Shown here one piece after another: positions 11,472 to 31,964 of a stretch of 32,000 bases of DNA (the stretch's first letter is position 1; each line of letters opens with the position of its first letter). The DNA lies in contig NZ_LN885086.1 of assembly GCF_001458695.1 (NCBI RefSeq), positions 780,001-812,000 on the forward strand, in the 5' to 3' direction. A model generated the notes under the pieces. That model saw nothing but the letters and a program-made list of their open reading frames with translations, did no database searches and was not told where the DNA came from. The position numbers and the translations under genes are program-made. Source of the DNA: Candidatus Nitrospira inopinata. GTDB taxonomy: Bacteria; Nitrospirota; Nitrospiria; Nitrospirales; Nitrospiraceae.

Positions 11472-12398
11472 ATGGATCGCTTCCGCCTTGGATGGCTTCT
11501 TTTGGCTGGCGGTCTTATGCTCGGGCTGGGATCGAGCTGGGCAGCCTATGTGTGGCTGGAAACACAGGGTCTGGCCCAGGGGGAACAGGACCAGTCTGTT
11601 CACCCGGTCCTCGTCGCCGCCCGAAACCTTCCACGGGGGATCAAATTACAGCCGGACGACGTGCGGCTGGTGCCCTTCCCGGAAGCCAGCCGTCCGGAAG
11701 GGGCGTTAGCATCGGTGGAATCCAGCGTCGGCCGGCCAGTGCTGGAGCCAATTCGCAACGGAGAGCCAGTGCTGGACACCAAGCTGGGCCCGACCGATGT
11801 CACCGCCTCACCAGTCGCGTTGCGAACGGCCCAGCACAAACGGGCCTACGCGGTTCGGCTGCAAGGCCCGGCCGGGAACGTAATCGTCCCCGGCGACTCC
11901 ATCGATCTGCTCGTCACGGTGAGACCGACCGACACCTCGGGCAGGCCGCTCACGGAACCAACGAGCCGTATCGTGGTGGAACAGGTGCCGGTGCTCGACG
12001 TCCTCCGAGCCGCTGCTTCGGGGAACACGGAGGGCCTGGGTGGTTCACAGGCTGTGCCAGCAAGCGACTGGCAAGACATCGTCCTTGAAGTGACCCCTGA
12101 AGAGGCAGAGCGGGTGGCGTTGGCGGAACATGAAGGCACCTTGCGCGCCGTGTTGCGACATCCCACCGACACAGAGAGGGCTAACACTCCGGGAGTCAGT
12201 CAATCCCACCTCCTGGGTCTGGAACCGCCGATGAGACAGGCCGGGGACACTCAATCTCGCCAGTCCCCTTTGTTGGTAAAGAAACAGGCTCCACGGACGG
12301 AGCCGGTCCGTCAGGCTACAGCGACACAAGCAGCCCCGGCACCTTCGGCTCGCATCGAGATAATTCGGGGAGGACAGCGAAGCGAGGTGACCTTTTAA
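11472..12398 (+). CDS. cpaB: Flp pilus assembly protein CpaB/RcpC
   Basis: 308 aa. An N-terminal TM anchor is followed by a SAF-like segment (VLVAARNLPRGIKLQPDDVRLVPFP...GRPVLEPIRNGEPVL) and an RcpC-like region. SD AAAGGAGA upstream. It sits between flp and the secretin. Confidence 0.85.
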   Translation: MDRFRLGWLLLAGGLMLGLGSSWAAYVWLETQGLAQGEQDQSVHPVLVAARNLPRGIKLQPDDVRLVPFPEASRPEGALASVESSVGRPVLEPIRNGEPVLDTKLGPTDVTASPVALRTAQHKRAYAVRLQGPAGNVIVPGDSIDLLVTVRPTDTSGRPLTEPTSRIVVEQVPVLDVLRAAASGNTEGLGGSQAVPASDWQDIVLEVTPEEAERVALAEHEGTLRAVLRHPTDTERANTPGVSQSHLLGLEPPMRQAGDTQSRQSPLLVKKQAPRTEPVRQATATQAAPAPSARIEIIRGGQRSEVTF

Positions 12399-12455
12399 AC
12401 GCCGACCGGCTCGGCAACATGGCCAAGGCCAAGACCAACAAGGCAACACCAACTG

Positions 12456-13970
12456 ATGACCGGGATCAGAATCATGTCAGAGCAACAGCCAGGGAAGAGG
12501 ATCCGGAAGAGGATCCGATTGTGTCGTGCTCTGTTACTAGGGCTTGTGACGCTGTTCGGCTCGGACATCGTATCTGCCCCTCTCTCCTGGGCCGCCGATC
12601 CATCACCCGGCGCACCCGGCGGGACAAGACCCACGATCCGCCTCACTGTCGGCGGCTCCCAGGTGCTCGATCTGAACAGGCCGACCAACAGGGCTTCGAT
12701 CGCCAATCCGGACGTGGCCGACACCATTGTGCTCTCGCCACGCCAACTGTACATCTTGGGCAAGGTCCCCGGCGTGACAACCCTCATGGTGTGGAGCAAG
12801 AACGAAGAGTCGCCCGTCGCCTACGACATTACTGTCGAACCCAACGTGACGGAGCTCACTCGCCTCCTCAAGGCTCTTTATCCGAACGATGGTCCCCTTC
12901 AGGTCACGACAGCCGGCGATCAGATGGTCGTGAGCGGAACCGTCGCCAGCGCCGCCCGCCTGTCTCAAATTCTCGCTATCGCCGAAGCCTATGCGCCGAA
13001 GCGCGTCATCAACCTGCTCTCGCTCAAAGGTCCGCAGCAAGTCATGTTGGAGGTGCGCGTCGCGGAAATCGACCGCTCGCTCCTCCGACGACTCGGCGTC
13101 AACGGCAGTGTCGCCGCCAACAACGGCCGCGAGTTCGGGGTCTCGGTGCTCAAAAACTTGACGAGCATCCTGCCGGCCGGCGACAGCGCAGCAGCGATCG
13201 CGCCCATCGCCGGCGCGGCCGCGCCATTCGGCATCGGTCTGGGACCGACCATCTCCGCGTTGTTTCGAGGGGGGATCGGCAATACCACCTGGACAGCCTT
13301 CCTGGATGCACTCAAGGAAGAAAATCTGGTCAAGGTGCTCGCTGAACCGACCTTGGTCACGATCAACGGCCAAGAGGCTTCGGTGTTGGCGGGCGGCGAG
13401 TTCCCCATTCCCATCCCCCAGGCCTTCGGTGTCACGACCGTGCAATACAAAAGCTTTGGCGTCCAGCTCAAATTCCGGCCGATGGTGTTGGACCACCGAC
13501 GGATCAGCATCACGGTCACGCCGGAAGTGTCCGAACTGGACTTCGCCAAGAGCTTGACCCTGCAGGGCTTCGCGGTACCGTCCGTCACGACCCGGCGCGC
13601 TTCGACGACAGTCGAGCTGGAAGAGGGGCAAAGTTTCGTCGTGGCCGGCCTGTTACGAGACAATGTTCGGGAAATCGTCTCGAAATTTCCCTATCTCGGC
13701 GATGTCCCGGTCTTGGGCGCGCTGTTTCGCAGTACGAAATTCGAGAAGAACGAGTCGGAATTGATCATTCTAGTCACACCCCGTTTCGCGGCGCCGGTCC
13801 AGGCCAATACCCTGTCCCTGCCGACCGATCGCTATCAAGAGTCCTCGGAGGCAGACCAGTTCCTCTACGGGCGAACAGGGCGGCATCGCTCAGTGGGCTC
13901 GGCACCTGCCGCTGACGCTCCGAATGCTACAGGCAACCCCACATCCTCTCGTCAGGGAGTCGCACCATGA
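12456..13970 (+). CDS. cpaC: Tad secretin CpaC/RcpA
   Basis: 504 aa with a signal peptide. The pilus-formation N-domain reads IRLTVGGSQVLDLNRP..IANPDVADTIVLSPRQLYILGKVPGVTTLMVW. The C-terminal secretin core reads VLAEPTLVTINGQEASVLAGGEFP...PYLGDVPVLGALFRS...ELIILVTP. Confidence 0.9.
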   Translation: MTGIRIMSEQQPGKRIRKRIRLCRALLLGLVTLFGSDIVSAPLSWAADPSPGAPGGTRPTIRLTVGGSQVLDLNRPTNRASIANPDVADTIVLSPRQLYILGKVPGVTTLMVWSKNEESPVAYDITVEPNVTELTRLLKALYPNDGPLQVTTAGDQMVVSGTVASAARLSQILAIAEAYAPKRVINLLSLKGPQQVMLEVRVAEIDRSLLRRLGVNGSVAANNGREFGVSVLKNLTSILPAGDSAAAIAPIAGAAAPFGIGLGPTISALFRGGIGNTTWTAFLDALKEENLVKVLAEPTLVTINGQEASVLAGGEFPIPIPQAFGVTTVQYKSFGVQLKFRPMVLDHRRISITVTPEVSELDFAKSLTLQGFAVPSVTTRRASTTVELEEGQSFVVAGLLRDNVREIVSKFPYLGDVPVLGALFRSTKFEKNESELIILVTPRFAAPVQANTLSLPTDRYQESSEADQFLYGRTGRHRSVGSAPAADAPNATGNPTSSRQGVAP

Positions 13971-14347
13971 ACAACGGGACTTACCCTCTCTCAATCATGG
14001 GACGCTGGTGTCTGGTCCTTGCTATCGTAACGTTGCTCTCCTGCGAAACGCCGACGCACCTCCGTGAGGATTTCGGTGCGTCATACAACGAGGCGATCCG
14101 AGCCCAGACCGATCCGGACCATGTCCGTCGGTCGCTCGCCGGCTCCTCGCTCGATGGCCGCGCCGCCGCATTCCTGTATGAAGCCTACATCGAGCGGCAC
14201 AGGCAGTCGGCAGACTCATCTCAACAGCCCCCTCAACAGCCTGCTCAACAGCCCGGCACCGCCCTTCCCTCGACGGCGGCAGGATTCTTTTCAGGCGGGA
14301 GCTCAAGCGGAGCCAGCTCCATGCCGGCAGGGGGGCCGAATCCATGA
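13967..14347 (+). CDS. small low-complexity lipoprotein (positional RcpB/CpaD equivalent)
   Basis: 126 aa. Its ATG overlaps the cpaC stop (ATGA). It has a lipobox-like TLLS|C. The C-terminal half is QQPPQQPAQQP plus a Ser/Gly-rich tail. No family was recognised. Confidence 0.5.
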   Translation: MNNGTYPLSIMGRWCLVLAIVTLLSCETPTHLREDFGASYNEAIRAQTDPDHVRRSLAGSSLDGRAAAFLYEAYIERHRQSADSSQQPPQQPAQQPGTALPSTAAGFFSGGSSSGASSMPAGGPNP

Positions 14348-14775
14348 ACCGATCCACTCATATTGGGTCGCGACGGTGGTGGTCATCTTCCGACGGCGCC
14401 GCAGCCGTGGAATTCGCCTTGGTTCTGCCGCTGCTGCTCTTGCTCACAGTCGGCATGATCGACGCTGGTCTCCTGCTCCATCGCGCCTCGCTATTGAGCG
14501 GAGCGAGCCGTGAAGGGGCCCGCGTCGGCGTCGTCAACGCGACAAGTCGATCAAACGCTCAGTCTATTGAGACAACCGTTCGCTCATTTTTGGCTAGAAC
14601 CGGCGTCTCGTTTCCAGGCTTGCAGGTCACGGTCAGAGGAGCCGGAGGACAACCGGGCACCGAGCTGTCCGTGCTCGTCCGGGCGCCTCATCGATTCCTG
14701 CTGCTCGGCCGATTGGTTCCCGGCGTACCCTCAGAGATCACACTGCGAGCCTCGACCGTCATGGCCATTGAATAA
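14344..14775 (+). CDS. tadE: TadE-like pseudopilin
   Basis: 143 aa with an ATGA start/stop overlap with the upstream gene. The N-terminal motif SDG|AAAVEFALVLPLLLLLTVGMIDAG is the TadE-family prepilin-like leader plus helix. Confidence 0.8.
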   Translation: MNRSTHIGSRRWWSSSDGAAAVEFALVLPLLLLLTVGMIDAGLLLHRASLLSGASREGARVGVVNATSRSNAQSIETTVRSFLARTGVSFPGLQVTVRGAGGQPGTELSVLVRAPHRFLLLGRLVPGVPSEITLRASTVMAIE

Positions 14776-14796
14776 AATAAGAGGAATGGAGAGGCG

Positions 14797-15816
14797 ATGG
14801 CAAGAGACCTTCGAATGGCTCATGAGCGCGGCGCCGTTGCCGTGATTGTCGCGGTGCTCCTTCCCGCCTTGCTCGGTGTCGCCGGGCTCGTGATCGATGG
14901 AGGCGAGTTTATGCTCGCGCGTCTTCGCTTGCAGACGGCGGCCGACTCGGCGGCGCTGGCGGCCGCATCGTTCATGGGCCGGAGTCGCTCAGACGGTCAC
15001 CCTTCGCAGGCCCTGCTTAGGGCCGGATCGCTCGACTCCGTCGCGTGGCCCGTCGCCCAGCGCAATTGGGGCGACGACGCCTCCCTGTCCCTCAGGGTCG
15101 AAAGTGGTCATTGGGATTCGGCTGCGCGCCGGCTTGCGCCTCGTCCCGATCAACCGGACGCCGTGGCCGTCCATGCGAGCGCCACATTGCCAACCCACCT
15201 TGCTGGTGCGTTGGGGGTTAGGCGATGGACCATCTCCGCCCGGTCTATTGCGGCCCTTCCTCCCTTGGGCTCCGTTCCAGCAGGCACCATCACGCTTCCG
15301 CTCGGACTGGTCACTCTTTCGACGGGGCGCAGCCTGCTCAACGGACGCGAGACGGGCCACGCTCAGGGCTTTGGTCCCTGTACCGTCCGCCTGTCGTTCG
15401 AATCCGAAGGCCGGCCAAGCATGCCAGCCCGTGACGGATTTCCTGAGCTGCGGGCAGGCCACAGCCGCATCCGAGTAATCGACGACGGGAGGTCGCTGAC
15501 CAGGGAGGAGCTCGCACGAAGTTATCGGCAGCCTGGCGCCTCTCTCCGTGATGAACTGATCGCGGTTGTCCCGGTGATCGAGGCCGACCGATGTCCTGTG
15601 CCTTCCGGCTGGCATCGCGTGGCCGGCTTCGCAACCGTGCGGGTGAGCGCCGCTCGCGCACATCCTCTTCCTGTTCTCCCCATTACAGCCACGGCGCACC
15701 TCGGCGACCCAGGAGCTCCGTTGTCCATCCAAATTGTTACCAGCCACGTGGTCCAGGGGCGAGGAAGGGGGCCGAATTTCGGTACGCAAGCCGCTTCGCC
15801 GGTGCTGGTGCAATAG
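14797..15816 (+). CDS. tadG: TadG-like (Tad_N domain) pilus assembly protein
   Basis: 339 aa. The N-terminus ERGAVAVIVAVLLPALLGVAGLVIDGGEFMLARLRLQTAADSAALAAA matches the TadE/G-like N-terminal domain. I did not recognise a family for the remainder, and no vWA motifs are evident. Confidence 0.7.
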   Translation: MARDLRMAHERGAVAVIVAVLLPALLGVAGLVIDGGEFMLARLRLQTAADSAALAAASFMGRSRSDGHPSQALLRAGSLDSVAWPVAQRNWGDDASLSLRVESGHWDSAARRLAPRPDQPDAVAVHASATLPTHLAGALGVRRWTISARSIAALPPLGSVPAGTITLPLGLVTLSTGRSLLNGRETGHAQGFGPCTVRLSFESEGRPSMPARDGFPELRAGHSRIRVIDDGRSLTREELARSYRQPGASLRDELIAVVPVIEADRCPVPSGWHRVAGFATVRVSAARAHPLPVLPITATAHLGDPGAPLSIQIVTSHVVQGRGRGPNFGTQAASPVLVQ

Positions 15817-15831
15817 GAGGAATCTTCCACG

Positions 15832-16683
15832 ATGAAGGTGCCCAACCAACCGACTTCCCCCAGTCCACTCCCTTCCTCCACTCAGCTCATCTGTGTGATG
15901 GGCGCCAAGGGCGGCGTCGGCACGACGACCGTGGCCGTCAATCTGGCCGTGAGCCTCCGCCACCGCTTTTCCACCACGGTGCTGCTATTGGACTGGGACT
16001 TTGCAGGCGGCACAGCCGCACCGTTGCTCGGTGTCACGGCTCGCTATTCGCTTCGCGACCTACTCAATCGCCCAAGCGAATGTGATTCGTACTCCTTCTT
16101 GCGGTCCCTCTCCGAATCTTCTTACGGCGTGTGCGTGCTTCCCAATGGTCATGAGGGATGGCAGCCACCGGCCGGATCTTCGACCCAGCTCGACCACCTG
16201 GCCCAATTGGCGGTCCAAACAAATTCCCTGATCGTGGCCGATATCGGGCGAGCTTCTGGTGAGCATGCCGCGCCCATCCTCAACCGTGCCACGACTGTTG
16301 TCTTGGTTTCCACACCGAATGTGGAAGCGATGCTTCGCGCGGGCCGGATGGGGTGGATGGTCGATTCGTCGCCCCTTCAAGCAACACGCCGCCTGTTTGT
16401 CGTCAATTGTGCACGGGATGCTGACCGACCCGTGCTTACGGAGGCTCAGCGGCAGTTGCGCCGGCGGATCGACCTGGTGATTCCGCGCGATGATAATCGT
16501 GTCACCCTGGCCGCTGAACGGGGCCAACCAGTCATGATTATGGCGGCGACCTGCCCCTTCTCACAGGCGATCCGTAAGCTGGAAGGCCTCACCCTGGGAA
16601 CGGACGGCGATCAGGCTGCGGGCGCGGAATCGTCGTGGTCCCATCGGCTGTCTTCCTGGTTTCCTCGGAGGAAAGCGGCATGA
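15832..16683 (+). CDS. cpaE: CpaE/TadZ-like ParA/MinD-type ATPase, short form
   Basis: 283 aa with SD AGGAGG upstream. The deviant Walker A VMGAKGGVGTTTVAVNLA begins at about residue 22. It sits directly upstream of cpaF with an ATGA overlap. Confidence 0.8.
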   Translation: MKVPNQPTSPSPLPSSTQLICVMGAKGGVGTTTVAVNLAVSLRHRFSTTVLLLDWDFAGGTAAPLLGVTARYSLRDLLNRPSECDSYSFLRSLSESSYGVCVLPNGHEGWQPPAGSSTQLDHLAQLAVQTNSLIVADIGRASGEHAAPILNRATTVVLVSTPNVEAMLRAGRMGWMVDSSPLQATRRLFVVNCARDADRPVLTEAQRQLRRRIDLVIPRDDNRVTLAAERGQPVMIMAATCPFSQAIRKLEGLTLGTDGDQAAGAESSWSHRLSSWFPRRKAA

Positions 16684-18008
16684 TGTCGTCGGCGCCTTCC
16701 CCCTCGGTCGGAGCAAGCAGCCATCCTGGCAATGATCTCTCGGCCCTCCAAGAGCAGGTGTACCGAGCGTTGCTCACCCGCCTCGATGTGGCGCACCTCG
16801 CCCAACTGGACCGTGAAAGCCTGGAGATGGAACTCGCCATTTCCACGATGGCGATCCTGGAGTCACAAGGCACCGCGCTGCGCACGGATGAAATCCGACG
16901 GATCGTCGAGGCCATCCGCAGCGAGGTGCTGGGGTACGGTCCCTTGGACGTTTTGCTCAATGATCCTTCTGTCTCCGACATCCTGGTCAACGGCGCCACG
17001 CGCGTCTATGTCGAACGGGGTGGCCGTCTCCAAGAAACCGAGGTGAGATTTCGTGATGACACGCACCTGCGCGACGTGATCGACAAGATCGTGGCCCAGG
17101 TCGGTCGTCGGATCGATGAATCGTCTCCCATGGTCGATGCCCGCTTGCCGGATGGCTCACGGGTCAACGCGGTGCTGCCGCCGCTCGCGCTTGACGGACC
17201 GGTGCTCTCGATTCGCAAATTCGTCAAGGACCGGCTCTCGTTGGCCGACTTGATCGCCAAAGGCAGCTTGGTGCCTCCGATGGGAGACTTTCTCGCCGCC
17301 GTCGTCCGCGCCCGGCGCAATGTCGTCATCTCCGGCGGGACCGGCTCCGGCAAGACGACTCTGCTCAACATGTTGTCCGAAAATATTCCGCCGACCGAGC
17401 GGATCATCACGATCGAGGACGCGGCGGAATTGCAACTGCGCCAGCCCCATGTCGTCCGTCTGGAGACCAGGCCGCCTAATCTCGAGGGACAAGGTGAAGT
17501 CACGCAGCGGGACTTGGTGCGCAATTGTCTGCGCATGAGGCCGGACCGAATCATTCTGGGCGAAATCCGCGGCGCCGAGGCGCTGGACATGTTGCAGGCG
17601 ATGAACACCGGTCATGACGGATCGCTGGTAACCGTGCATGCCAATTCACCGACCGACGCGATGAGCCGGATCGAAATGATGGTGGCCATGGCGAATGTCT
17701 CCTTGCCCCCAGCGGTCGTCAAACAGACCATGGCCTCCGCTCTTCACATTGTTGTCCAGGTCTCGCGGCTCTCTGATGGGACGCGCAAGGTCGTGGGCAT
17801 TCACGAAGTCGTCGGCATGAAGGACAACTTCATTGCGCTTCAAGAATTATTCCGATTCGAACAGCGCGCTGTCGATGAGACGGGCCGGGTGCAGGGGGGC
17901 TTTGTCTCGACCGGCAATCGCCCTCAGTGCTTGCCATTGTTGAGGGCCCAGGGGCTTCGTGTCTTAGACGAGTGGTTTCGGCCGCAAGAATACCCTCTTC
18001 CGACCTGA
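16680..18008 (+). CDS. cpaF: Tad secretion ATPase CpaF/TadA (T2SSE family)
   Basis: Walker A ISGGTGSGKTTLLN, Asp box ITIEDAAEL, Walker B RPDRIILGEIRG, His box GHDGSLVTVHANS. The start was chosen at ATG 16680, which overlaps the cpaE stop. The track ORF starts at 16635. Confidence 0.95.
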   Translation: MMSSAPSPSVGASSHPGNDLSALQEQVYRALLTRLDVAHLAQLDRESLEMELAISTMAILESQGTALRTDEIRRIVEAIRSEVLGYGPLDVLLNDPSVSDILVNGATRVYVERGGRLQETEVRFRDDTHLRDVIDKIVAQVGRRIDESSPMVDARLPDGSRVNAVLPPLALDGPVLSIRKFVKDRLSLADLIAKGSLVPPMGDFLAAVVRARRNVVISGGTGSGKTTLLNMLSENIPPTERIITIEDAAELQLRQPHVVRLETRPPNLEGQGEVTQRDLVRNCLRMRPDRIILGEIRGAEALDMLQAMNTGHDGSLVTVHANSPTDAMSRIEMMVAMANVSLPPAVVKQTMASALHIVVQVSRLSDGTRKVVGIHEVVGMKDNFIALQELFRFEQRAVDETGRVQGGFVSTGNRPQCLPLLRAQGLRVLDEWFRPQEYPLPT

Positions 18009-18047
18009 TGCCATGATGCCGTCGGCCGAGACGTTGACTGTAAGATC

Positions 18048-18896
18048 ATGACACCGATCCTCATCGCTATCGGAGTCGGGTGTTCCACCACGTTGCTGTG
18101 GCTCGCCGGCACCTTGCTTCTTGGCGGCTCGCGACGAGTTCCTCCTCTCAAGCTCGCCGAGAGCCCGGAGGCTCATGAGAGAGCTGGCGTGATGAGCGTG
18201 ATGAGATGGTTCGGATCGATGCTGCGGTTCGGTCGGTCGAGCAATCCAGGTTCCGGTACCCAACAGGAGGCAGACCAACCAGGATGGTCACGGCGGATTG
18301 ATACGCTCGTCACTCTCTGCGCCCACCCCTCCGCCGTTTGGAAGAGCCGACGGCGGCTACGGCGCATCCGCGAGCAACTCCCCGACGCCCTGGAGGTGAT
18401 GGCCCGCGCGCTCCGCGCCGGCCATGCCGTGCCCACCAGCTTGGCCATGGTGGTCGAAGAGAGTGCCGATCCGCTCCGCCGTGAGTTCGCCCTCGTCGTC
18501 GAGGCTATGCGATTTGGAAAGAGCTTGCCCGAGGCCCTTAAAGAACTGGCCTCGCGAGTGGACGTGGAGGAAGTGCGGTTCTGGGTTACCTGCCTTTTGA
18601 TTCAACGAGAAACAGGGGGAAGTCTCCCCCACATGCTGGACGAGGTAAGTCGGTTGATCCGCGCGCGCATGGAATTCGCCGCCAAAGTGAAAGCCGTCTC
18701 GGCCGAAGCGCGATTTTCCGCGGTGGTGCTGTCCGGCCTGCCATTGGTGGTGGGTGGATTGATCAGTGTGATCAATCCTGAGTACCTCTCGCCCCTCTGG
18801 ACCACCTCTGTAGGGCAGGCGATGGCAGCAACAGCACTAGGCCTGATGGGGTGCGGCATCATCGTCATGCGCCGCATGACACGCATCAACTTGTAG
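18048..18896 (+). CDS. tadB: Tad inner-membrane platform protein TadB (T2SSF domain)
   Basis: 282 aa. It has an N-terminal TM, a T2SSF-like cytoplasmic domain (LPDALEVMARALRAGHAVPTSLAMV...FGKSLPEALKELASR) and C-terminal TM helices. Confidence 0.85.
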   Translation: MTPILIAIGVGCSTTLLWLAGTLLLGGSRRVPPLKLAESPEAHERAGVMSVMRWFGSMLRFGRSSNPGSGTQQEADQPGWSRRIDTLVTLCAHPSAVWKSRRRLRRIREQLPDALEVMARALRAGHAVPTSLAMVVEESADPLRREFALVVEAMRFGKSLPEALKELASRVDVEEVRFWVTCLLIQRETGGSLPHMLDEVSRLIRARMEFAAKVKAVSAEARFSAVVLSGLPLVVGGLISVINPEYLSPLWTTSVGQAMAATALGLMGCGIIVMRRMTRINL

Positions 18897-18956
18897 GGAC
18901 ATCTTACGCCGTCGAGAGGAGAACGCACCGTCTGGTCCCATGATTCACAACGCTGG

Positions 18957-19934
18957 ATGGTATCAGCGATGATGTCCTCAAACCCACCCGCTGAATGGCT
19001 AATTGTAGGCCTGGCGCTGGCGACGGTCGCCTGTTGGACCGGTCTTATGTTAATCGGCCAGGAAGCGGTCCGCCTGCGCCGCTGGCGGCGCCTCTTGCAG
19101 ACCATCCGCACTCCCTGGAACTCGATCGTCCATCCCCCCTCTTGGCAGGTGCAATTGATTCAGCTCATCCAGCGGGTTGGCACCGCAGGCCTTCGCTGGA
19201 TGTCCCCTATCCCTGCCAAGTGGGCTGACCTCATCACCCGCAGTGGTTATCGACGACCTGACGCCACGGCAATTTTGCTCGGCTTTAAACTCCTTGGCGT
19301 AGCCATAGGACTTCTCATCAGCTTGATTGGTCTTTTGTTGGCAAGCCTGAGCGCGGACTGGAACGATGAGATGCTCAGCCTGTTTGCGCTCGGTGGTGTT
19401 CTAACCCCTATCGGCTGGTTCATCCCCGACTGGTGGCTCCGCTATCGGGCGAACCGGCGACAGCAGCGGCTTCAGCGCAGCATACCGGATTTTCTCGATC
19501 TGCTCCTCGTCACAATCGAAGCAGGGCTTCCACTCTCCGCCGCGCTCGATCGTATTGCGCGTGTCTTGGGACTCACTCACCCAGAATTGGGTCAGGAGCT
19601 GCGGCAATTGGTCTTTGATCTCAGGACAAGCCGCTCGCGCGCCGCGGCCCTTCGTGCCTTTGCAGCCCGTACCCAGGTGGACGCCATCGTGTCGCTTGCC
19701 AGCGTTCTTATCCAAACCGAGCGATTTGGCGTGAGCCTGGCTCGCACCCTGCGGCTTCACGCCGAAACCCTACGCCGCAAACAACAGCTCCATGCCGAAG
19801 AGTTGGCTGGGGCTCTACCAGTGAAGCTGTTGTTTCCCCTGATCTTCTTCATCTTTCCCGCCATTTTCGTCGTGCTCCTGGGGCCGGCGGTGGTCCAGGG
19901 CATCGAGACCCTTCGGTCCATGCTGACGCCATAA
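18957..19934 (+). CDS. tadC: Tad inner-membrane platform protein TadC (T2SSF domain)
   Basis: 325 aa. The T2SSF-like domain reads IPDFLDLLLVTIEAGLPLSAALDRIA...ERFGVSLARTLRLHAETLR, flanked by TM helices. It is paralogous in layout to TadB. Confidence 0.85.
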   Translation: MVSAMMSSNPPAEWLIVGLALATVACWTGLMLIGQEAVRLRRWRRLLQTIRTPWNSIVHPPSWQVQLIQLIQRVGTAGLRWMSPIPAKWADLITRSGYRRPDATAILLGFKLLGVAIGLLISLIGLLLASLSADWNDEMLSLFALGGVLTPIGWFIPDWWLRYRANRRQQRLQRSIPDFLDLLLVTIEAGLPLSAALDRIARVLGLTHPELGQELRQLVFDLRTSRSRAAALRAFAARTQVDAIVSLASVLIQTERFGVSLARTLRLHAETLRRKQQLHAEELAGALPVKLLFPLIFFIFPAIFVVLLGPAVVQGIETLRSMLTP

Positions 19935-25891: not shown

Positions 25892-27100
25892 ATGCTCGAA
25901 CAATTCCTCGATAACTTCCTTCACAATCTTTTCAAGCCCTTGCTGCTTTTCTTCTATCTTGGTTTCTTGGTTCCATTGCTCAAGGTTCCTTTTGAGTTCC
26001 CCTATGCAATTTACAAGGGGCTCATTATCTACCTGCTGATCTCGATCGGATGGCACGGGGGCGAAGAATTGGCGTCTCTGTCCGCGGCGGACTTCGGGCG
26101 TGCCAGCGGGTTCATGATCGTGGGGTTTATAACCAATCTCGTAATCGGGATTGTTGCGTACGCTGCGCTTCGCCAGACAAACATTCGTCAAATCGACGCG
26201 GCGGCAGTTGCGGGCTATTACGGCTCCGACTCAGCCGGAACATTCGTCACTTGTCTGGGCGTCTTGACGGCCTCCAACATCGCTTACGCGGCGTACATGC
26301 CGGTCTTGCTCGCCGTCATGGAAATCCCCGGCTGTCTGGTCGCTCTTGCGCTTGTTGCCCGAATGCGGGAAACCGGTCTGATGGACGCGTTGGGAAACAT
26401 GCCGGGGGAGCCCGGCTATGATCCTTCCGCAAAACGCATGGATTGGAACGGCCAGATCGACGAACTTGACGAACTCGATGAAACCAAAGGTTCCCGAGTG
26501 ACAACATCCAGCCCCTCTCGTTCGGTGGAGATTTCAAAACCGAACGATACCGTCAAAGCCTCTGGGATCTTCAGCAAGGGAGTGCTCCACGAAGTTTTTC
26601 TGAATTCCGGTCTGTACTTGTTGTTCGGCGGTATCGTGATCGGCTTCGTGTCCGGCCTGCAAGGCACGAAGGTGACGGGCACCCATGATCAATTATTCGT
26701 ACAGTTGTTCCCTGCGATCCTAAGCCTTTTCCTTATCGAGATGGGCATGACGGCCTGCAAGCGACTCCAAGACGTGCGGACGGCGGGCTGGAAATTCGTG
26801 ATGTTCGGCCTGATCGCCCCTAATGTCTTCGCTGTCTTCGGCATTCTGATCGCGCACGGATACAGCGCGTTCCTGGGGCATCCATTTGAAATCGGCACGT
26901 ACGCTCTTTTCGCCGTTCTCTGCGGATCGGCATCGTATATCGCCGTTCCCGCGATTCAGCGACTCGCCATTCCCGAGGCAAGCCCGACCCTGGGATTGGC
27001 AGCTTCTCTCGGTCTGACATTTTCCTACAATGTCACGATCGGCATTCCGCTCTACATCATGATCGCCACGGTCATTTCCACGGCAATACCGGTTCAGTAA
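25892..27100 (+). CDS. SbtA-family (Sbt_1/DUF897) sodium-dependent bicarbonate transporter-like permease
   Basis: 402 aa with GAAGGA 8 nt upstream. It has two 5-TM halves around an acidic cytoplasmic loop (IDELDELDETKG). Blocks align with cyanobacterial SbtA as I remember it: AVAGYYGSDSAGTF, LAVMEIPGCLVALALVA, LSLFLIEMGMTACKRL and GSASYIAVPAIQRLAIPEASP. Confidence 0.85.
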   Translation: MLEQFLDNFLHNLFKPLLLFFYLGFLVPLLKVPFEFPYAIYKGLIIYLLISIGWHGGEELASLSAADFGRASGFMIVGFITNLVIGIVAYAALRQTNIRQIDAAAVAGYYGSDSAGTFVTCLGVLTASNIAYAAYMPVLLAVMEIPGCLVALALVARMRETGLMDALGNMPGEPGYDPSAKRMDWNGQIDELDELDETKGSRVTTSSPSRSVEISKPNDTVKASGIFSKGVLHEVFLNSGLYLLFGGIVIGFVSGLQGTKVTGTHDQLFVQLFPAILSLFLIEMGMTACKRLQDVRTAGWKFVMFGLIAPNVFAVFGILIAHGYSAFLGHPFEIGTYALFAVLCGSASYIAVPAIQRLAIPEASPTLGLAASLGLTFSYNVTIGIPLYIMIATVISTAIPVQ

Positions 27101-27159: not shown

Positions 27160-27327
27160 GGCACTCGACGGCCACAAGGGGTTCGCCGAGTTATGGTTCG
27201 GCAATTCGTCGTTCTTCTGCGAATCCTCTTTCAGAGGCTCTGTGCTTTCAAAGAGGGCGACCACACAATTTGCATGAGTTTTGCCTTCATGCTGTGGGAT
27301 AACCCAAAAGGGAGGCCGGACATCGCT

Positions 27328-28476
27328 GTGAATTTGTCATGGTTGAGGCAAAGAAGCCCAAATGTCGCTCGATACCGGCGTTGCGGACACCTGGCCGACT
27401 CACCAAGCCCTTTACGACAAACTTGCCCCATAGTAAACGCTCCTGCGACAATCCTGTCACAATTCATCAAGTTGCATGGTCTGGCAACAAGTCTGCTCTT
27501 TCTCCTCTTGGGTACTGCATCTCCCGCAATGGCCGTGCCTCCCAATATCGGCTGGTCCGTCACAAGCGGGGGGTCGTTGTTCTATACCGATGATGTCGCT
27601 CTCTTTTCGGCCACCCGACGATCAAGCCTGGATGGTGATCCCTCACAGCCTGTCTTGGACGTCTCTCGGACCGGCATCGGCAAAGACATGGTCTTCGAGC
27701 CGTACGTCCGCGTATCCAAGTTGCTTCCATCTTCCTTCGGAGAAACAGAGCTTTCAGCGCGGGTGCGCGGATTTGTCTATGCGAAAAACCCCGAGTTCAG
27801 CCAAGGCTCGGTGTATCTCGAAGCCATCCACGGCTTCACACCCCAGACGATCCTCAGACTCAGATACTTCACAGCTCCTGATCAACTGCTCGGACAGACC
27901 GAACTGCATGGATCCGAAGCGAACCTCCAAGACATGCGTGTTACTTCCCATCTGGGTACCATCCGGCTGGATCATCGCCTCTCCGAACATTGGGAAATCC
28001 AACTGCTCGGACGGGCCGGGATTCGCCGTTTCAATGACCCTTTTGCCCATCGCGATACCTTGTTGTGGCGGGTTGGCCCGCATCTTTTGTATCACGTCAA
28101 CCACCACGCAAGGGTGATTCTGGGCTATCACTATGAGCAAGGTCTGGCCGAAGGACGCCACGAGATTGAGCTTCATGATGACGTTTCCTATAGACATCAC
28201 TTCGCGTCCATCGGCCTCGAGATGGACCTGTTGGAACATTTGGAGCTCGAATTGGACTTTCATTACGAGCGCAACAACTTTACGACCGGCAATCCGGAGG
28301 ACGAGCGGTTTGACGGGCATGAAAACATCTTCATCGGAAGTGGCAGACTTTCCCTGCAGGTGACCGACCATGCTGCCCTGACCCTCACGGTTCAACGATC
28401 CAATCGCAACCAGAATTTTCACCAGACGCATGACCATAACACCAATGTCTCGCTGGGAGTGATCTATCGGTTTTGA
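27328..28476 (+). CDS. histidine-rich outer-membrane beta-barrel protein
   Basis: The signal-like segment is GLATSLLFLLLGTASPAMA|VPP. Amphipathic beta-strands alternate throughout, and the C-terminus VSLGVIYRF-stop is an OMP-type terminal aromatic. The start is ambiguous: ATG 27193, GTG 27328 (GGGAGG 12 nt upstream) or TTG 27472 just before the signal peptide. Confidence 0.6.
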   Translation: MNLSWLRQRSPNVARYRRCGHLADSPSPLRQTCPIVNAPATILSQFIKLHGLATSLLFLLLGTASPAMAVPPNIGWSVTSGGSLFYTDDVALFSATRRSSLDGDPSQPVLDVSRTGIGKDMVFEPYVRVSKLLPSSFGETELSARVRGFVYAKNPEFSQGSVYLEAIHGFTPQTILRLRYFTAPDQLLGQTELHGSEANLQDMRVTSHLGTIRLDHRLSEHWEIQLLGRAGIRRFNDPFAHRDTLLWRVGPHLLYHVNHHARVILGYHYEQGLAEGRHEIELHDDVSYRHHFASIGLEMDLLEHLELELDFHYERNNFTTGNPEDERFDGHENIFIGSGRLSLQVTDHAALTLTVQRSNRNQNFHQTHDHNTNVSLGVIYRF

Positions 28477-28611: not shown

Positions 28612-29196
28612 ATGATGCTCCGCAGCAACGATCCTCACCTTCAAGACCTCCGGAGGAGGAGCCTCTTGTTTAGAACACTGACGTTCGCAGCCCTCTGCTG
28701 CTCGCTCGTGGCTTGTCATCGTACGTTCGGCATTCCCAGAGATCTGGTGAGGGATCTGCCTGCATTGGCCTCCGTTCGATCCGTGTACATCGAGGACTTG
28801 ACCCATGGGGAAGACCCCCATCTTGTGGAGGGATCGGACCTCGTCAAAGAAAAGATCAACCAAAAGCTGACCCAATCTGGCCGCTTTGCGATCGTGGATC
28901 GTCCGGATCTGGCCGATGCCCTGTTGACGGGCGTGGCCGGTTTTCAACGGTGGTACTTTGGGATGGAGAGTTTTTTTGGATTGGAGGGCAGCCTCAACAC
29001 CCAATATGCGGGGATTGGCATGGTTCGCCTCCTTGATGCGAAAACCAAACGACCCATCTGGACTCACGAGTATGAGACAGGTTTGTTCCATCCGACCCAA
29101 CCGGTGGTGGACCGGGTCGCCAACCAGATAGCCGAGAAATTGCTGGCTGATGCGGCTCTTGCGGCAGAGCGAGGGGCCTCTCCGCCCCGGCAATGA
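28612..29196 (+). CDS. hypothetical lipoprotein
   Basis: 194 aa with the lipobox SLVA|C after RRRSLLFRTLTFAALC. The mature domain (...QSGRFAIVDRPDLADALLTGV...) resembles small periplasmic lipoprotein folds, but I cannot name a family. Confidence 0.6.
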   Translation: MMLRSNDPHLQDLRRRSLLFRTLTFAALCCSLVACHRTFGIPRDLVRDLPALASVRSVYIEDLTHGEDPHLVEGSDLVKEKINQKLTQSGRFAIVDRPDLADALLTGVAGFQRWYFGMESFFGLEGSLNTQYAGIGMVRLLDAKTKRPIWTHEYETGLFHPTQPVVDRVANQIAEKLLADAALAAERGASPPRQ

Positions 29197-29327
29197 ATCG
29201 GCGCTCTCTTGAGCCCGCTTCTTGAACCGTCCCCACAACTTTTTTCATGCGAACCAGCAGTTGTGAGAGGCTTTCTCTGGCTTCTCTATGACCCGCCGGC
29301 TGAGGCTCTTACGGGGGAGTTGAGAAA

Positions 29328-30338
29328 ATGGGGGGGCGTAATTATAATCCTTCCGCTATGTTGTTAGCTTCAAAAGGGATGACAACAACCGTTTTTGAGC
29401 ATGGTGACAACATGATCCATTTCAATCCTGGACACCGATCAACTTTGCTCGGACTGGCGACTGTATTGTTGGGAATGCTGATCGCTACTCCTTCCCAAAG
29501 TCTTGCCGAGATGCCGAAACATACCGAGACATGCGTGGCAGTCAGTGAACAGGACATTGCCGCTCTCTTTGATCGTTGGAATGAGTCCCTCAAGACCGGT
29601 GATCCCCATAAGGTCGTCGCAAATTATGCCCCAAAGTCTGTCCTCCTCCCGACCCTGTCGGGCAAGGCCCGTTTCACGCCGCAAGAAAAGGAGGACTATT
29701 TTCATCACTTCCTTCAGAATCAGCCAGAAGGACGCATTGATTCCCGAACCATCGAACTTGACTGCAACATGGCCATCGACGAGGGGCTTTATACTTTTGC
29801 CTTTAAGAAGACCGGCGCCGTCGCAAAGGCTCGATATACGTTTGCCTACAAGTGGGACGGCAAACAATGGTTGATCACGAGCCATCATTCGTCGGCATTG
29901 CCCTCTGAACAAACCCCTCTGGACGAGCCTGTCCGTGCTGTTGCACAGCATGCAGAAGTGTGCGTAGCAGTCAGCGAAAAGGAAATCGACGCTCTGCTTG
30001 AGCGGTGGAAGGACTCTCTCCAGAGCGGGAATCCTCATAAGGTGATCGCTCACTACGCCTCTAAATCCGTCCTTCTTCCATTCTCTTCAATGAAACCTCT
30101 CTTGACGCTCGACGAGAAGGAAGAGTACTTCCGTCATTTTCTCAAGGAAAAGCCGCTGGTCCGCATCAACTCCCATACCATCGAACTGGATTGCAATACG
30201 GCCATCAATGAAGGGTTCTATACCTACACCTTTCAAAAAAGCGGGCGGATCGTGAACGCGCGATACAGCGTCGTGTTCAAGTGGGACGGCCTCCAATGGT
30301 TGATCACGAGCGATCATTCATCAGTCTTGCCCCGTTAA
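29328..30338 (+). CDS. secreted protein with two tandem iota-carbonic-anhydrase-like (CaMKII-AD / SnoaL-NTF2-like, COG4875-type) domains
   Basis: 336 aa with SD GGGGAG 8 nt before ATG 29328. An alternative start is ATG 29412 (MIHF...). The signal peptide is STLLGLATVLLGMLIATPSQSLA|E. Each of the two gapless homologous domains ends in WLITS(H/D)HSS.LP, which is like the HHSS motif of iota-CA family members as I remember it. Confidence 0.8.
   Translation: MGGRNYNPSAMLLASKGMTTTVFEHGDNMIHFNPGHRSTLLGLATVLLGMLIATPSQSLAEMPKHTETCVAVSEQDIAALFDRWNESLKTGDPHKVVANYAPKSVLLPTLSGKARFTPQEKEDYFHHFLQNQPEGRIDSRTIELDCNMAIDEGLYTFAFKKTGAVAKARYTFAYKWDGKQWLITSHHSSALPSEQTPLDEPVRAVAQHAEVCVAVSEKEIDALLERWKDSLQSGNPHKVIAHYASKSVLLPFSSMKPLLTLDEKEEYFRHFLKEKPLVRINSHTIELDCNTAINEGFYTYTFQKSGRIVNARYSVVFKWDGLQWLITSDHSSVLPR
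29532..30332 (+). repeat. intragenic tandem domain duplication (2 x 372 nt, offset 429 nt)
   Basis: Residues 69-192 (nt 29532-29903) and 212-335 (nt 29961-30332) align without gaps. I count 76/124 identical residues by hand (about 61%). Confidence 0.9.
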
Positions 30339-30712
30339 TCGACTGTACAGGGCCGAACCTGCCGAGAGCGAACTGATTTCATGAGCGACTGCTCGCGGCC
30401 TCTATCGAGACAGCGGGTACGACAACACTGTCTCAGGCCACACTAAGCCAGCCACGGGATCTTTCCCGCAAGGTTCCTCATAGAAAAACTGACACAGAAC
30501 GATTGAAAGGCACGGCTCTACGGCATGCCGTCTTTGGTGCGTTTGATGCGCCTCTTCTTCCTAAATACAAAGAAAGGGGCGGCATTTGTCTGGTGACGAG
30601 ATCGCTGATTCGCAGATGTAGATTTTTTTTTGACAAGCGAATGTAAACTACAGCCCTTCCAATCGTAGCTGCACCGCTTCGACCGCTGGTTTATACGGAA
30701 GGGGGAGAGATC

Positions 30713-31564
30713 ATGCTCATCATGCTGTGGGAATTCATAGTTGTTATGGCATTGTTACTGCCGGCAGCAGGTTTGTATGCAGGGGAGGGGGAAGCACTCA
30801 CATGGAGTTACGATGGCGAACGGGGGCCGCTGCATTGGGGGAAGCTTAGCCCGGAGTTTGCTCTCTGCGAGAAAGGTATGGCGCAATCGCCGATCGATTT
30901 ATTGCGTAGCCACAGGATTGCGCTGGATGAAATCCAGTTTTCCTATAAAGATGCGCCGTTCCACATCGTCAACAATGGGCATACACTGTCGGAAATCGAA
31001 CCCCTTTCAGAAACGGCCAAATCTCGATACCCCAGACATGGGCAGACCGTCTTGCACTTCGATAAGGACAGCACCATCGTGTTCGACGGAGACCTCTACC
31101 TCCTGGAGCAATTCCATTTTCATGCTCCCAGCGAGCACACCATCGATCAGAGACACTATCCCTTGGAGTTGCATCTGGTTCACCATAACGAGCGTCATGA
31201 AGCGGCCGTCGTCGCCGTGTTCATCCAGGAGGGACAGCACAATCCGTTTTTTGAGAAATTCCTGGACCATGCTCCTCACAAGGTCGGAGAATTCATTGAG
31301 GACAAGGAACATCTGATCAATCCGGAGACGCTCTTGCCCAAAAGCCGGACCTACTACCGTTATTACGGATCCTATACCACCCCGCCGTGCCATGAAGGCG
31401 TCGTATGGGCCGTGATGCATGAACCCATTGAAGTTTCAACCGAACAGGTTCGACGTTTTCGGGCCCTCATGGGACATGACAACGCACGACCGACACAACC
31501 GTTGCATAAGCGTTTTGTTTTGGACTCCAGCCTGGCACTCCCAAACGCTCATACCAAACGTTAA
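30713..31564 (+). CDS. alpha-class carbonic anhydrase, periplasmic
   Basis: 283 aa with SD GGGGGAG upstream and a signal peptide (LLLPAAGLYAG). Motifs are WSYDGERGPLHW, SPIDL, NNGHT, the Zn ligands in QFHFHAPSEH and ELHLVH, and YYRYYGSYTTPPC. The Cys pair (LCEKG / PPCHEG) is typical of bacterial alpha-CAs. Confidence 0.95.
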   Translation: MLIMLWEFIVVMALLLPAAGLYAGEGEALTWSYDGERGPLHWGKLSPEFALCEKGMAQSPIDLLRSHRIALDEIQFSYKDAPFHIVNNGHTLSEIEPLSETAKSRYPRHGQTVLHFDKDSTIVFDGDLYLLEQFHFHAPSEHTIDQRHYPLELHLVHHNERHEAAVVAVFIQEGQHNPFFEKFLDHAPHKVGEFIEDKEHLINPETLLPKSRTYYRYYGSYTTPPCHEGVVWAVMHEPIEVSTEQVRRFRALMGHDNARPTQPLHKRFVLDSSLALPNAHTKR

Positions 31565-31739: not shown

Positions 31740-31964
31740 ATGGCTCAAATCATCAATCTCAGCGAACACGCCAGCGACGAGGACGTTCACTATCTGACGT
31801 CTCTTCTGATTTACCATCTGGTCGAACGTTGCGGGGGGCAGTTGCAATTTACCCTTCAAGAGGTTCGACAGATCCGCGACAGCCTCGCGACCAAGATGGT
31901 GCAAATCCAGCTCGGCAACGACGTGCGCCTCCGCATCATCGACCGCCTACCGGAGCTGCGGTAG
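31740..31964 (+). CDS. hypothetical 74-aa protein
   Basis: The ORF has plausible composition (MAQIINLSEHASDEDVHYLTSLLIYHLVERCGG...). It has no convincing SD (GGAG lies 13 nt upstream) and I recognised no family. Confidence 0.3.
   Translation: MAQIINLSEHASDEDVHYLTSLLIYHLVERCGGQLQFTLQEVRQIRDSLATKMVQIQLGNDVRLRIIDRLPELR

Follow-up and report, generated by a model that had tools for sequence, protein, structure and literature searches.

A putative periplasmic tandem-domain iota-carbonic anhydrase with a conserved, probably pseudo-catalytic second domain in Candidatus Nitrospira inopinata

The tandem-domain gene and its product

In soils and in wastewater treatment, bacteria of the genus Nitrospira play a key part in the oxidation of nitrite, yet little has been established about how they acquire dissolved inorganic carbon (DIC). 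Iota-carbonic anhydrases (iota-CAs) are a young class of carbonic anhydrases (CAs; 2019-2021), and for the COG4875 branch of this class it is unsettled whether the mechanism is metal-dependent or metal-free. A 32,000-nucleotide stretch of the Candidatus Nitrospira inopinata genome (assembly GCF_001458695.1, contig NZ_LN885086.1, positions 780,001 to 812,000 of the forward strand; hereafter the window, in which all coordinates are counted) contains an open reading frame (ORF) of 336 aa (stop included) for a tandem-domain iota-CA-like protein. This protein is probably a periplasmic COG4875/LCIP63-type iota-CA that combines one active site with one conserved pseudo-catalytic domain. The features of the gene are as follows.

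29328..30338, plus strand: tandem-domain iota-CA-like ORF (ORF listing; Pfam, NCBIfam, PDB and homologue searches)
29320..29348, plus strand: sigma-70-like promoter match, TTGAGA-17-TATAAT, 11/12 (by consensus match only)
29412..29507, plus strand: Sec signal peptide MIHFNPGHRSTLLGLATVLLGMLIATPSQSLA, cut before EMPKH, with the probable genuine start codon ATG 29412 (inspection, homologue N-termini)
29526..29903, plus strand: domain 1 (aa 67-192), canonical iota-CA domain (alignments, motif spacing)
29652-29654, 29697-29699, 29883-29885 and 29889-29891, plus strand: domain 1 tetrad, T109, Y124, H186 and S188, respectively
29904..29954, plus strand: inter-domain linker SEQTPLDEPVRAVAQHA (aa 193-209, 17 aa; predicted local distance difference test score, pLDDT, below 50 at model residues 168-171)
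29955..30332, plus strand: domain 2 (aa 210-335), degenerate domain (alignments, residue status)
30081-30083 and 30312-30314, plus strand: domain 2 replacements, F252 (for Thr) and D329 (for the cavity His), respectively

The two domains could be aligned without gaps at 61% identity (77/126; BLASTP E = 7e-61), and their C-terminal ends read TSHHSSALP in domain 1 and TSDHSSVLP in domain 2. Thus, the repeat structure described in an initial annotation made from the sequence alone (a signal peptide, two domains of about 124 aa at about 61% gapless identity, 76/124, and the endings SHHSS and SDHSS) was recovered almost unchanged. Each domain also has a conserved Cys pair, C69/C146 in domain 1 and C212/C289 in domain 2. 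Domain 1 is 51% identical to the Xanthomonas campestris protein of known structure 3H51, compared with 40% for domain 2, and shares 64-76% identity with single-domain proteobacterial homologues (Burkholderiales, Pseudomonas).

The translated gene is probably shorter than the listed ORF. The majority of homologues comprise about 295 aa and begin at the signal peptide, the 28-aa N-terminal extension being absent in most of them, and in homologue P0002, which is 95% identical, 6 of the 28 extension residues differ from those in the window. The promoter match is the only strong sigma-70-like one within 25.5-32 kb and overlaps the ATG at 29328, so that transcription would begin 3' of this codon. 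Because of the homologue lengths, the divergence of the extension in P0002 and the promoter overlap, the start was placed at ATG 29412, which likely gives a 308-aa precursor and probably leaves the initial 28 codons of the ORF untranslated. By inspection, the signal peptide has the n-, h- and c-regions of a typical Sec type (MIHFNPGHR-STLLGLATVLLGMLIA-TPSQSLA, followed by EMPKH). Homologues bear Sec or lipoprotein signals, and comparable N-termini are found among them, such as MKKAVAFLSIFVAIPSLSLA followed by EMPQH. A periplasmic location is accordingly predicted for the protein, as it is for bacterial iota-CAs of this type.

Family and fold assignment

The Pfam scan detected CaMKII_AD (PF08332; 8.9e-25) in two stretches, besides weaker NTF2-like families. 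The sole NCBIfam match was TIGR02246 (SgcJ/EcaC family oxidoreductase), at 61.9 bits against a cut-off of 33.95. TIGR02246 is a broad NTF2-like subfamily label that is also attached to BteCA-iota, the Burkholderia territorii iota-CA, and is uninformative on oxidoreductase chemistry. Since the B. territorii enzyme has measured activity and, like bacterial LCIP63 homologues in general, is annotated as SgcJ/EcaC (PMC8425729, PMC6776030), the label is no argument against a CA. The initial annotation had held that best matches in SgcJ/EcaC-type families would speak against an iota-CA; such a match was indeed returned by NCBIfam, but the criterion is flawed for the reason just given.

In a PDB sequence search with the full protein, only 3H51 (1e-31), the template behind models of bacterial iota-CAs, and 7C5X/7C5Y, an iota-CA from Bigelowiella natans (5e-12), were found. 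Membership in the COG4337 branch was not indicated by sequence: the 7C5X match was confined to the C-terminal half, and in a further PDB search all2909 (7C5V) was undetected at E<=10, whereas the COG4875-like 3H51 appeared at 4e-32. Nor does the protein correspond to a CaMKII association (hub) domain proper, as it has no kinase domain and is a secreted bacterial protein consisting of two NTF2-like domains only. A cluster look-up of ten representatives returned generic names only (TIGR02246, DUF4440, SgcJ/EcaC), with no link to LCIP63 or BteCA-iota.

A structure model of the 308-residue chain was predicted with AlphaFold2 (AF2) from 55 homologues (mean pLDDT 88.6; predicted template modelling score, pTM, 0.82). 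It comprises two alpha+beta cone domains, with a disordered linker and N-terminus (about 45 disordered residues in all, the N-terminus being of low pLDDT). When this model was compared with the PDB by Foldseek, the best matches were 7C5Y, 3H51 and 7C5X (7e-14 to 2e-13; template modelling score, TM, 0.82 for 3H51), followed by other NTF2-like enzymes including polyether epoxide hydrolases and ketosteroid isomerases. Comparison with the two-domain proteins Bn86287 and Lsd19 gave a TM of about 0.35, not above the single-domain level. The description of a bacterial two-repeat iota-CA in the initial annotation is supported by PF08332, the 3H51 and 7C5X matches, Foldseek and the T/Y/H/S spacing described below. 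Taken together, sequence, predicted fold and gene context support placement among the COG4875/LCIP63-type iota-CAs, and it is domain 1 alone that contributes the HHSS motif and the tetrad to this placement.

Catalytic residues of the two domains

In domain 1, T109, Y124, H186 and S188 are spaced at +0/+15/+77/+79, identical to the homologous residues T62/Y77/H139/S141 of tp-iota-CA, the COG4875-type diatom enzyme (PMC8395977). The equivalents in domain 2 are F252, Y267, D329 and S331; thus, Thr and His have been lost, while Tyr and Ser are kept. The roles of these residues are known from the metal-free COG4337 enzymes, in which Thr106/486 and Tyr124/503 are essential and the T106A and T486A substitutions abolish activity (PMC8132391). 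Replacement of His197 or Ser199 by Ala inactivates all2909, and in domain 3 of Bn86287 replacement of His584 or Ser586 by Ala cuts activity 4-fold or 8-fold, respectively (PMC8132391).

The residues were mapped through 7C5X alignments with a chain-to-residue offset of 99, which fits Thr159, Tyr224 and Tyr552 and, within HHSS, aligns the first His with His256/584 and the first Ser with Ser258/586. By this alignment, D329 stands in the place of the cavity His (His197 in all2909; His256/584 in Bn86287), that is, the first His of the motif. The His that follows it, which is His257 in Bn86287 and His140 in tp-iota-CA, points to the dimer interface (PMC8395977), and its candidacy as the catalytic one was rejected on the 7C5X chain numbering and the tp-iota-CA numbering (PMC8395977). 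The suggestion that repeat 2 is diverged or a pseudo-enzyme, which the initial annotation had based on the His-to-Asp change, is strengthened by these results: the Asp does lie at the cavity His, and the larger change in domain 2, the replacement of the essential Thr by F252, had been missed.

Distribution and evolution of the degenerate domain

A word-indexed search of 5.8 billion proteins identified 433 homologues. About 100 of the 120 matches listed were of two-domain length (about 270-336 aa), nearly all of Nitrospira type and most about 295 aa long; the same listed matches included a few three-domain proteins (448-459 aa) and two-domain proteins from Corynebacterium and Pseudanabaena. A HMMER search with domain 1 against 1.84 billion representatives, a library without taxonomy, gave 1936 matches, many of them with 2-6 stretches. 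Metagenome proteins with six repeats (P0121, 954 aa) and four repeats (P0123, 585 aa) were also seen, on contigs of about 2.5-3 kb that may be of eukaryotic origin. The nearest locus, L001 (SZTDM-2_Bin289, a metagenome-assembled genome), shows 92% protein-level identity and is fully collinear.

Residue status was scored in 217 non-redundant domains, of which 31 come from loci, mostly in Proteobacteria, that encode a single domain. Both Thr and His were present in 136 domains, and 80 lacked Thr, with L, F, I, V, M, A or P instead. The His had been replaced, by D, N or Q, in 56 of the 80 Thr-less domains, whereas it was missing from only 1 of the 137 Thr-bearing domains (Fisher p = 2e-31, uncorrected for phylogeny). 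The catalytic Ser was lost as well in some Thr-less domains (HHAS/DHAS), and Tyr was invariant throughout. At the single-domain loci (L032-L066, mostly Proteobacteria), all 35 domains carry T/Y/HHSS. The combination of an intact domain 1 with a Thr-less domain 2 was found at L001-L014, L016-L020 and L069-71. Across about 20 Nitrospira species, the Thr-less second domain is conserved.

In a neighbour-joining (NJ) tree, the Thr-less domains form one group. This group also takes in P0061 and P0080, second domains that have kept Thr and are placed among its HHSS members, and most DHSS forms are nested further in. This placement of the HHSS and DHSS forms suggests that duplication was followed by loss of Thr and then by loss of His.

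The ratio of nonsynonymous to synonymous substitution rates (dN/dS) was tried against 13 orthologues, and dS was saturated or undefined except for L001 (and, roughly, L002-L005 for domain 2). In the comparison with L001, domain 1 gave a dN/dS of 0.013 and domain 2 one of 0.067; against L002-L005, the ratio was 0.03-0.06 for domain 2. Both domains are under purifying selection, and domain 2 is not decaying.

A comparable state was observed outside Nitrospira. In actinobacterial Corynebacterium-like two-domain lipoproteins (P0108-P0110), domain 1 is intact and domain 2 has F, L or P in place of Thr together with QHSS or QHAS, with a much stronger overall divergence; in their sisters P0098, P0102 and P0104, both domains are intact. 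By residue pattern, the same degeneration path seems to have been taken here a second time, independently. It may be asked whether tandem bacterial iota-CAs have repeatedly, and independently in Nitrospirota and Actinomycetota, made the C-terminal copy a conserved pseudo-enzyme domain with its own function, Thr being lost first and the cavity His next, and the function being, for example, bicarbonate sensing or docking to the outer-membrane protein (OMP)/lipoprotein pair described below or to DIC transporters. Such a generalisation is conceivable though doubtful; if true, it would account for the persistence of the domain in paralogues without any intact catalytic copy.

Genomic neighbourhood

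Four annotated neighbours lie on the same strand as the iota-CA gene, together with a short ORF:

25892..27100, plus strand: SbtA-family (Pfam Sbt_1) bicarbonate transporter homologue (Pfam 3e-93)
27193..28476, plus strand: beta-barrel protein of the outer membrane, its gene being in synteny with that of the iota-CA in Nitrospira (Pfam, neighbourhoods)
28612..29196, plus strand: lipobox-bearing (LVAC) ORF of 194 aa, without a Pfam match and in every case accompanied by the OMP gene
30713..31564, plus strand: alpha-class CA with an N-terminal signal peptide and FHFH...ELHLVH zinc-ligand motifs (Pfam 8.7e-44, inspection)
31740-31964, plus strand: 74-aa ORF, no Pfam match (70-97% identity; found 3' of the iota-CA/DIC cluster in most related Nitrospira loci)

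The order on the plus strand is thus SbtA-like gene, OMP gene, lipobox protein gene, iota-CA gene, a 375-bp gap, alpha-CA gene and 74-aa ORF. The SbtA-like gene has no adjoining P-II (SbtB-like) gene; in relatives, Dab operons end in a P-II gene just 5' of the iota-CA gene. The OMP and lipobox genes accompany the iota-CA gene in 15-17 related loci and may represent an inorganic-carbon porin/lipoprotein pair.

The 375-bp gap contains a weak terminator-like hairpin (30536-30552) and a perfect TTGACA hexamer (30631-30636) that is common to L001, and the alpha-CA may be transcribed separately. When the iota-CA/alpha-CA intergenic regions of six genomes (240-450 bp) were aligned, nothing was conserved beyond the closest relative and no shared regulatory element was found. 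An Rfam scan of the whole window detected no family at gathering score.

Gene context was compared in 31 Nitrospira or Nitrospira-like species representatives and three metagenome contigs. Genes with an intact domain 1 and a Thr-less domain 2 ('type A') adjoin DabB-DabB-DabA-PII, SulP/STAS, the OMP/lipoprotein pair or Sbt_1, and carbon-uptake or CA neighbours (DabB-DabB-DabA-PII, SulP, Sbt_1, an alpha-CA or a second, intact iota-CA) were present in nearly all adequately flanked Nitrospira loci. Directly 3' of the type A gene lies an alpha-CA in L001, L006, L007, L017 and L019; a 'type B' iota-CA, whose two or three domains are all fully intact, in L008, L011-14, L016 and L020; or a 1452-aa DabA fusion in L002-5, L009, L010, L015 and L031. 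In L069-71, a type B gene is located about 2 kb further on, past an OMP/lipoprotein pair. In the DabA fusion (L004 11123-15481), the DabA domain covers only residues 618-1418, the protein having an N-terminal part of about 600 aa besides.

The tandem type A gene is therefore the constant core of a variable inorganic-carbon island in which the neighbouring CA is exchangeable, and guilt by association argues strongly that the gene has a role in DIC acquisition. Surveys reporting multiple CAs and DIC transporters in Nitrospirota (PMC10880623, PMC13147460) are consistent with such a role. The initial annotation had proposed non-redundant roles for the two CAs from the adjoining alpha-CA gene. This was partly supported, as the alpha-CA gene does lie 375 bp 3' on the same strand, and in relatives its slot is taken by an intact multi-domain iota-CA or a DabA fusion. 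Elsewhere in the window, a complete, unrelated Tad/Flp pilus cluster was noted at 11472-19934 (RcpC/CpaB, a secretin, TadE/G-like proteins, a ParA-like ATPase, a T2SSE ATPase and two T2SSF proteins).

Proposed function and alternative explanations

The preferred reading of these data can be set out as a sequence of steps. The precursor would be exported by the Sec pathway and cleaved to a mature protein of two NTF2-like cone domains joined by the 17-aa linker. Domain 1, with its full tetrad, would serve as the site of CO2/HCO3- interconversion, and, acting in the periplasm, would supply bicarbonate transporters and prevent CO2 leakage. Domain 2, carrying F252 and D329, would be catalytically silent. 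It may replace the second subunit of a single-domain homodimer, a state described for 3H51 and all2909 (PMC8132391, PMC8425729), to form an intramolecular pseudo-dimer, and may also offer an interaction surface; the pTM of the model suggests a fixed arrangement of the two domains. The protein would work jointly with the SbtA-like transporter, the OMP/lipoprotein pair and the alpha-CA in this genome, and with SulP and DabBA-PII in relatives, feeding HCO3-/CO2 to an autotroph that uses the reductive tricarboxylic acid (TCA) cycle.

Several observations weigh against this reading. The essentiality of Thr and His has been demonstrated solely in COG4337-type enzymes (PMC8132391), and section 11 of the same paper (PMC8132391) gives the mechanism of the COG4875 type, like its active site and metal site, as unknown. 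Metal dependence has been reported for that type (Mn2+ for LCIP63, Zn2+ for BteCA-iota), and an Asp could act as a metal ligand. The His/Asp state flips between close relatives (L and HHSS in L002-L005; F and DHSS in the window protein and L001), so the Asp is not a fixed feature. Conservation of the loop P-L-S-S-T-K-P-R-L-T-L-D-D-K-E, which comes after the lost Thr, is higher in domain 2 than in its canonical counterparts, and a conserved Ser and Thr have been gained there beside the lost residue (P-L-S-S-T); this conservation could reflect a different function rather than none. Furthermore, two-domain paralogues in which Thr has been lost from both domains, leaving none intact, were found: P0070 (A/DHSS and I/HHSS), P0075 (L/HHSS twice) and P0083 (M/HHAS and I/DHAS). 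P0070 (L072 4123-5073) still sits behind an OMP gene and a 173-aa gene, the OMP/lipoprotein pair. Because these paralogues persist, loss of Thr does not simply equal a dead passenger domain. Finally, the pseudo-dimer itself is proposed only from the pTM value and by analogy.

In a first alternative, domain 2 is a neofunctionalised non-catalytic module that binds bicarbonate or CO2, or docks to the OMP/lipoprotein pair or DIC transporters. The conserved loop, the constancy of the type A gene in a variable DIC island with an exchangeable neighbouring CA, and the retention of P0070 behind the OMP/lipoprotein pair speak for such a module. However, domain 2 of the window protein itself departs from the conserved loop (R49 to L), and although the cavity Tyr, Phe and Ser are kept, constraints of the fold would predict this too. 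This alternative is rather unlikely.

The second alternative is that both domains are active CAs, the site of domain 2 being modified so that Asp329 and His330 hold Mn2+ or Zn2+, or the hydroxyls of Ser253 and Ser254 stand in for Thr. The two sites would then differ in metal or pH dependence, which corresponds to the 'metal-wise diverged' option of the initial annotation. The metal dependence reported for COG4875-type enzymes, in which the HHSS histidines are proposed ligands (PMC8395977, PMC8425729), is in line with it, as are the frequency of Asp as a Mn2+ ligand, the purifying selection on domain 2, the conserved Ser44/Thr46 acquired beside the lost Thr and the persistence of proteins with no intact domain. 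On the other hand, Thr is invariant in 136 canonical domains and 35 single-domain homologues, and its change to Ala kills both enzymes tested (PMC8132391). Its replacements are bulky hydrophobic residues (L/F/I/V/M) that offer neither a hydroxyl nor a ligand; the His position of Thr-less domains holds H, D, N or Q, a pattern like relaxed constraint and not a new ligand; and some of these domains lack the catalytic Ser too. Two active domains are thus quite unlikely.

It is very improbable that the protein is not a CA and that an NTF2-like, SgcJ/EcaC-type protein serves some other periplasmic function here (small-molecule binding, or an isomerase- or hydrolase-type reaction), since the TIGR02246 match, the promiscuity of the NTF2-like fold seen in the Foldseek matches and the never-confirmed CA activity of 3H51, the closest solved structure (PMC8132391), are countered by the same SgcJ/EcaC annotation of an enzyme with measured CA activity (PMC8425729), by the iota-CA-specific HHSS motif and T/Y/H/S tetrad (PMC6776030) and by a gene neighbourhood that, in about 30 genomes, consists of DIC transporters and further CAs.

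The Nitrospira proteins provide a natural experiment, in which a tetrad-bearing domain and a domain lacking Thr and His occur in one polypeptide and close relatives differ only at the His/Asp position. They may also serve as a natural test of whether the metal-free mechanism of Hirakawa extends to the COG4875 branch, and are of use in understanding how nitrite oxidisers take up DIC. In addition, surveys that count iota-CAs by 'Pfam08332 + HHSS' would overlook the probably inactive half of each such protein.

Comparison with known systems

The diatom enzyme LCIP63/tp-iota-CA (Thalassiosira pseudonana; PMC6776030, PMC8395977), which has a role in a CO2-concentrating mechanism, likewise consists of tandem CaMKII-AD-like repeats with identical catalytic spacing. 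It has four repeats, all with the tetrad, is plastid-targeted and is reported to be Mn2+-dependent, whereas the window protein consists of one canonical and one degenerate repeat and is predicted to be targeted to the periplasm. Compared by description only, BteCA-iota (Del Prete et al. 2020, PMC7191908; PMC8425729) resembles the window protein in being COG4875/CaMKII-AD-like and in its signal peptide, (H)HHSS motif and SgcJ/EcaC annotation, but it is a single-domain protein, whereas the window protein has two domains, the second without Thr and the cavity His.

Among solved structures, the best match is 3H51, an X. campestris 'CaMKII association domain' protein that forms a homodimer with a cavity ligand modelled as bicarbonate (PMC8425729). 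Unlike the window protein, it has a single domain and no Cys pair, and its CA activity was never confirmed (PMC8132391). The metal-free COG4337-type proteins all2909 (7C5V/W) and Bn86287 (7C5X/Y) share with the window protein the fold, HHSS and the cavity Thr/Tyr/His/Ser, and Bn86287 is also multi-domain (PMC8132391); their similarity to the window protein is weak and limited to the C-terminal half. Bn86287 differs further in having the tetrad in all three domains, the third of which shows, when tested by itself, roughly the activity of the whole protein (PMC8132391).

Jensen et al. 2019 pointed out bacterial homologues of LCIP63 that have two repeats, as here, from Corynebacterium mustelae and Contendobacter odensis, with no loss of catalytic residues reported (PMC6776030); later papers describe the prokaryotic forms as single-domain, or mostly so (PMC8132391, PMC8395977). 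The Corynebacterium-like homologues identified in this study are split between intact proteins (P0098, P0102, P0104) and proteins with a degenerate domain 2 (P0108-P0110). Full-text literature searches returned no account of Nitrospira iota-CAs, nor of a degenerate repeat in any iota-CA.

Conceptually, the nearest precedent is CsoSCA, a carboxysomal beta-CA in which, as reportedly put by Sawaya et al. 2006 (cited in PMC13147460), there is 'one active site for the price of two': the CA domain is said to have been duplicated, one copy having lost its catalytic residues and been kept as a structural partner. CsoSCA is unlike the window protein in having an unrelated fold (beta-CA), depending on zinc and residing in the cytoplasm or carboxysome. 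Two-domain bacterial forms of iota-CA have been known since 2019; what is new is a widespread, lineage-conserved tandem iota-CA with a probably pseudo-catalytic second domain.

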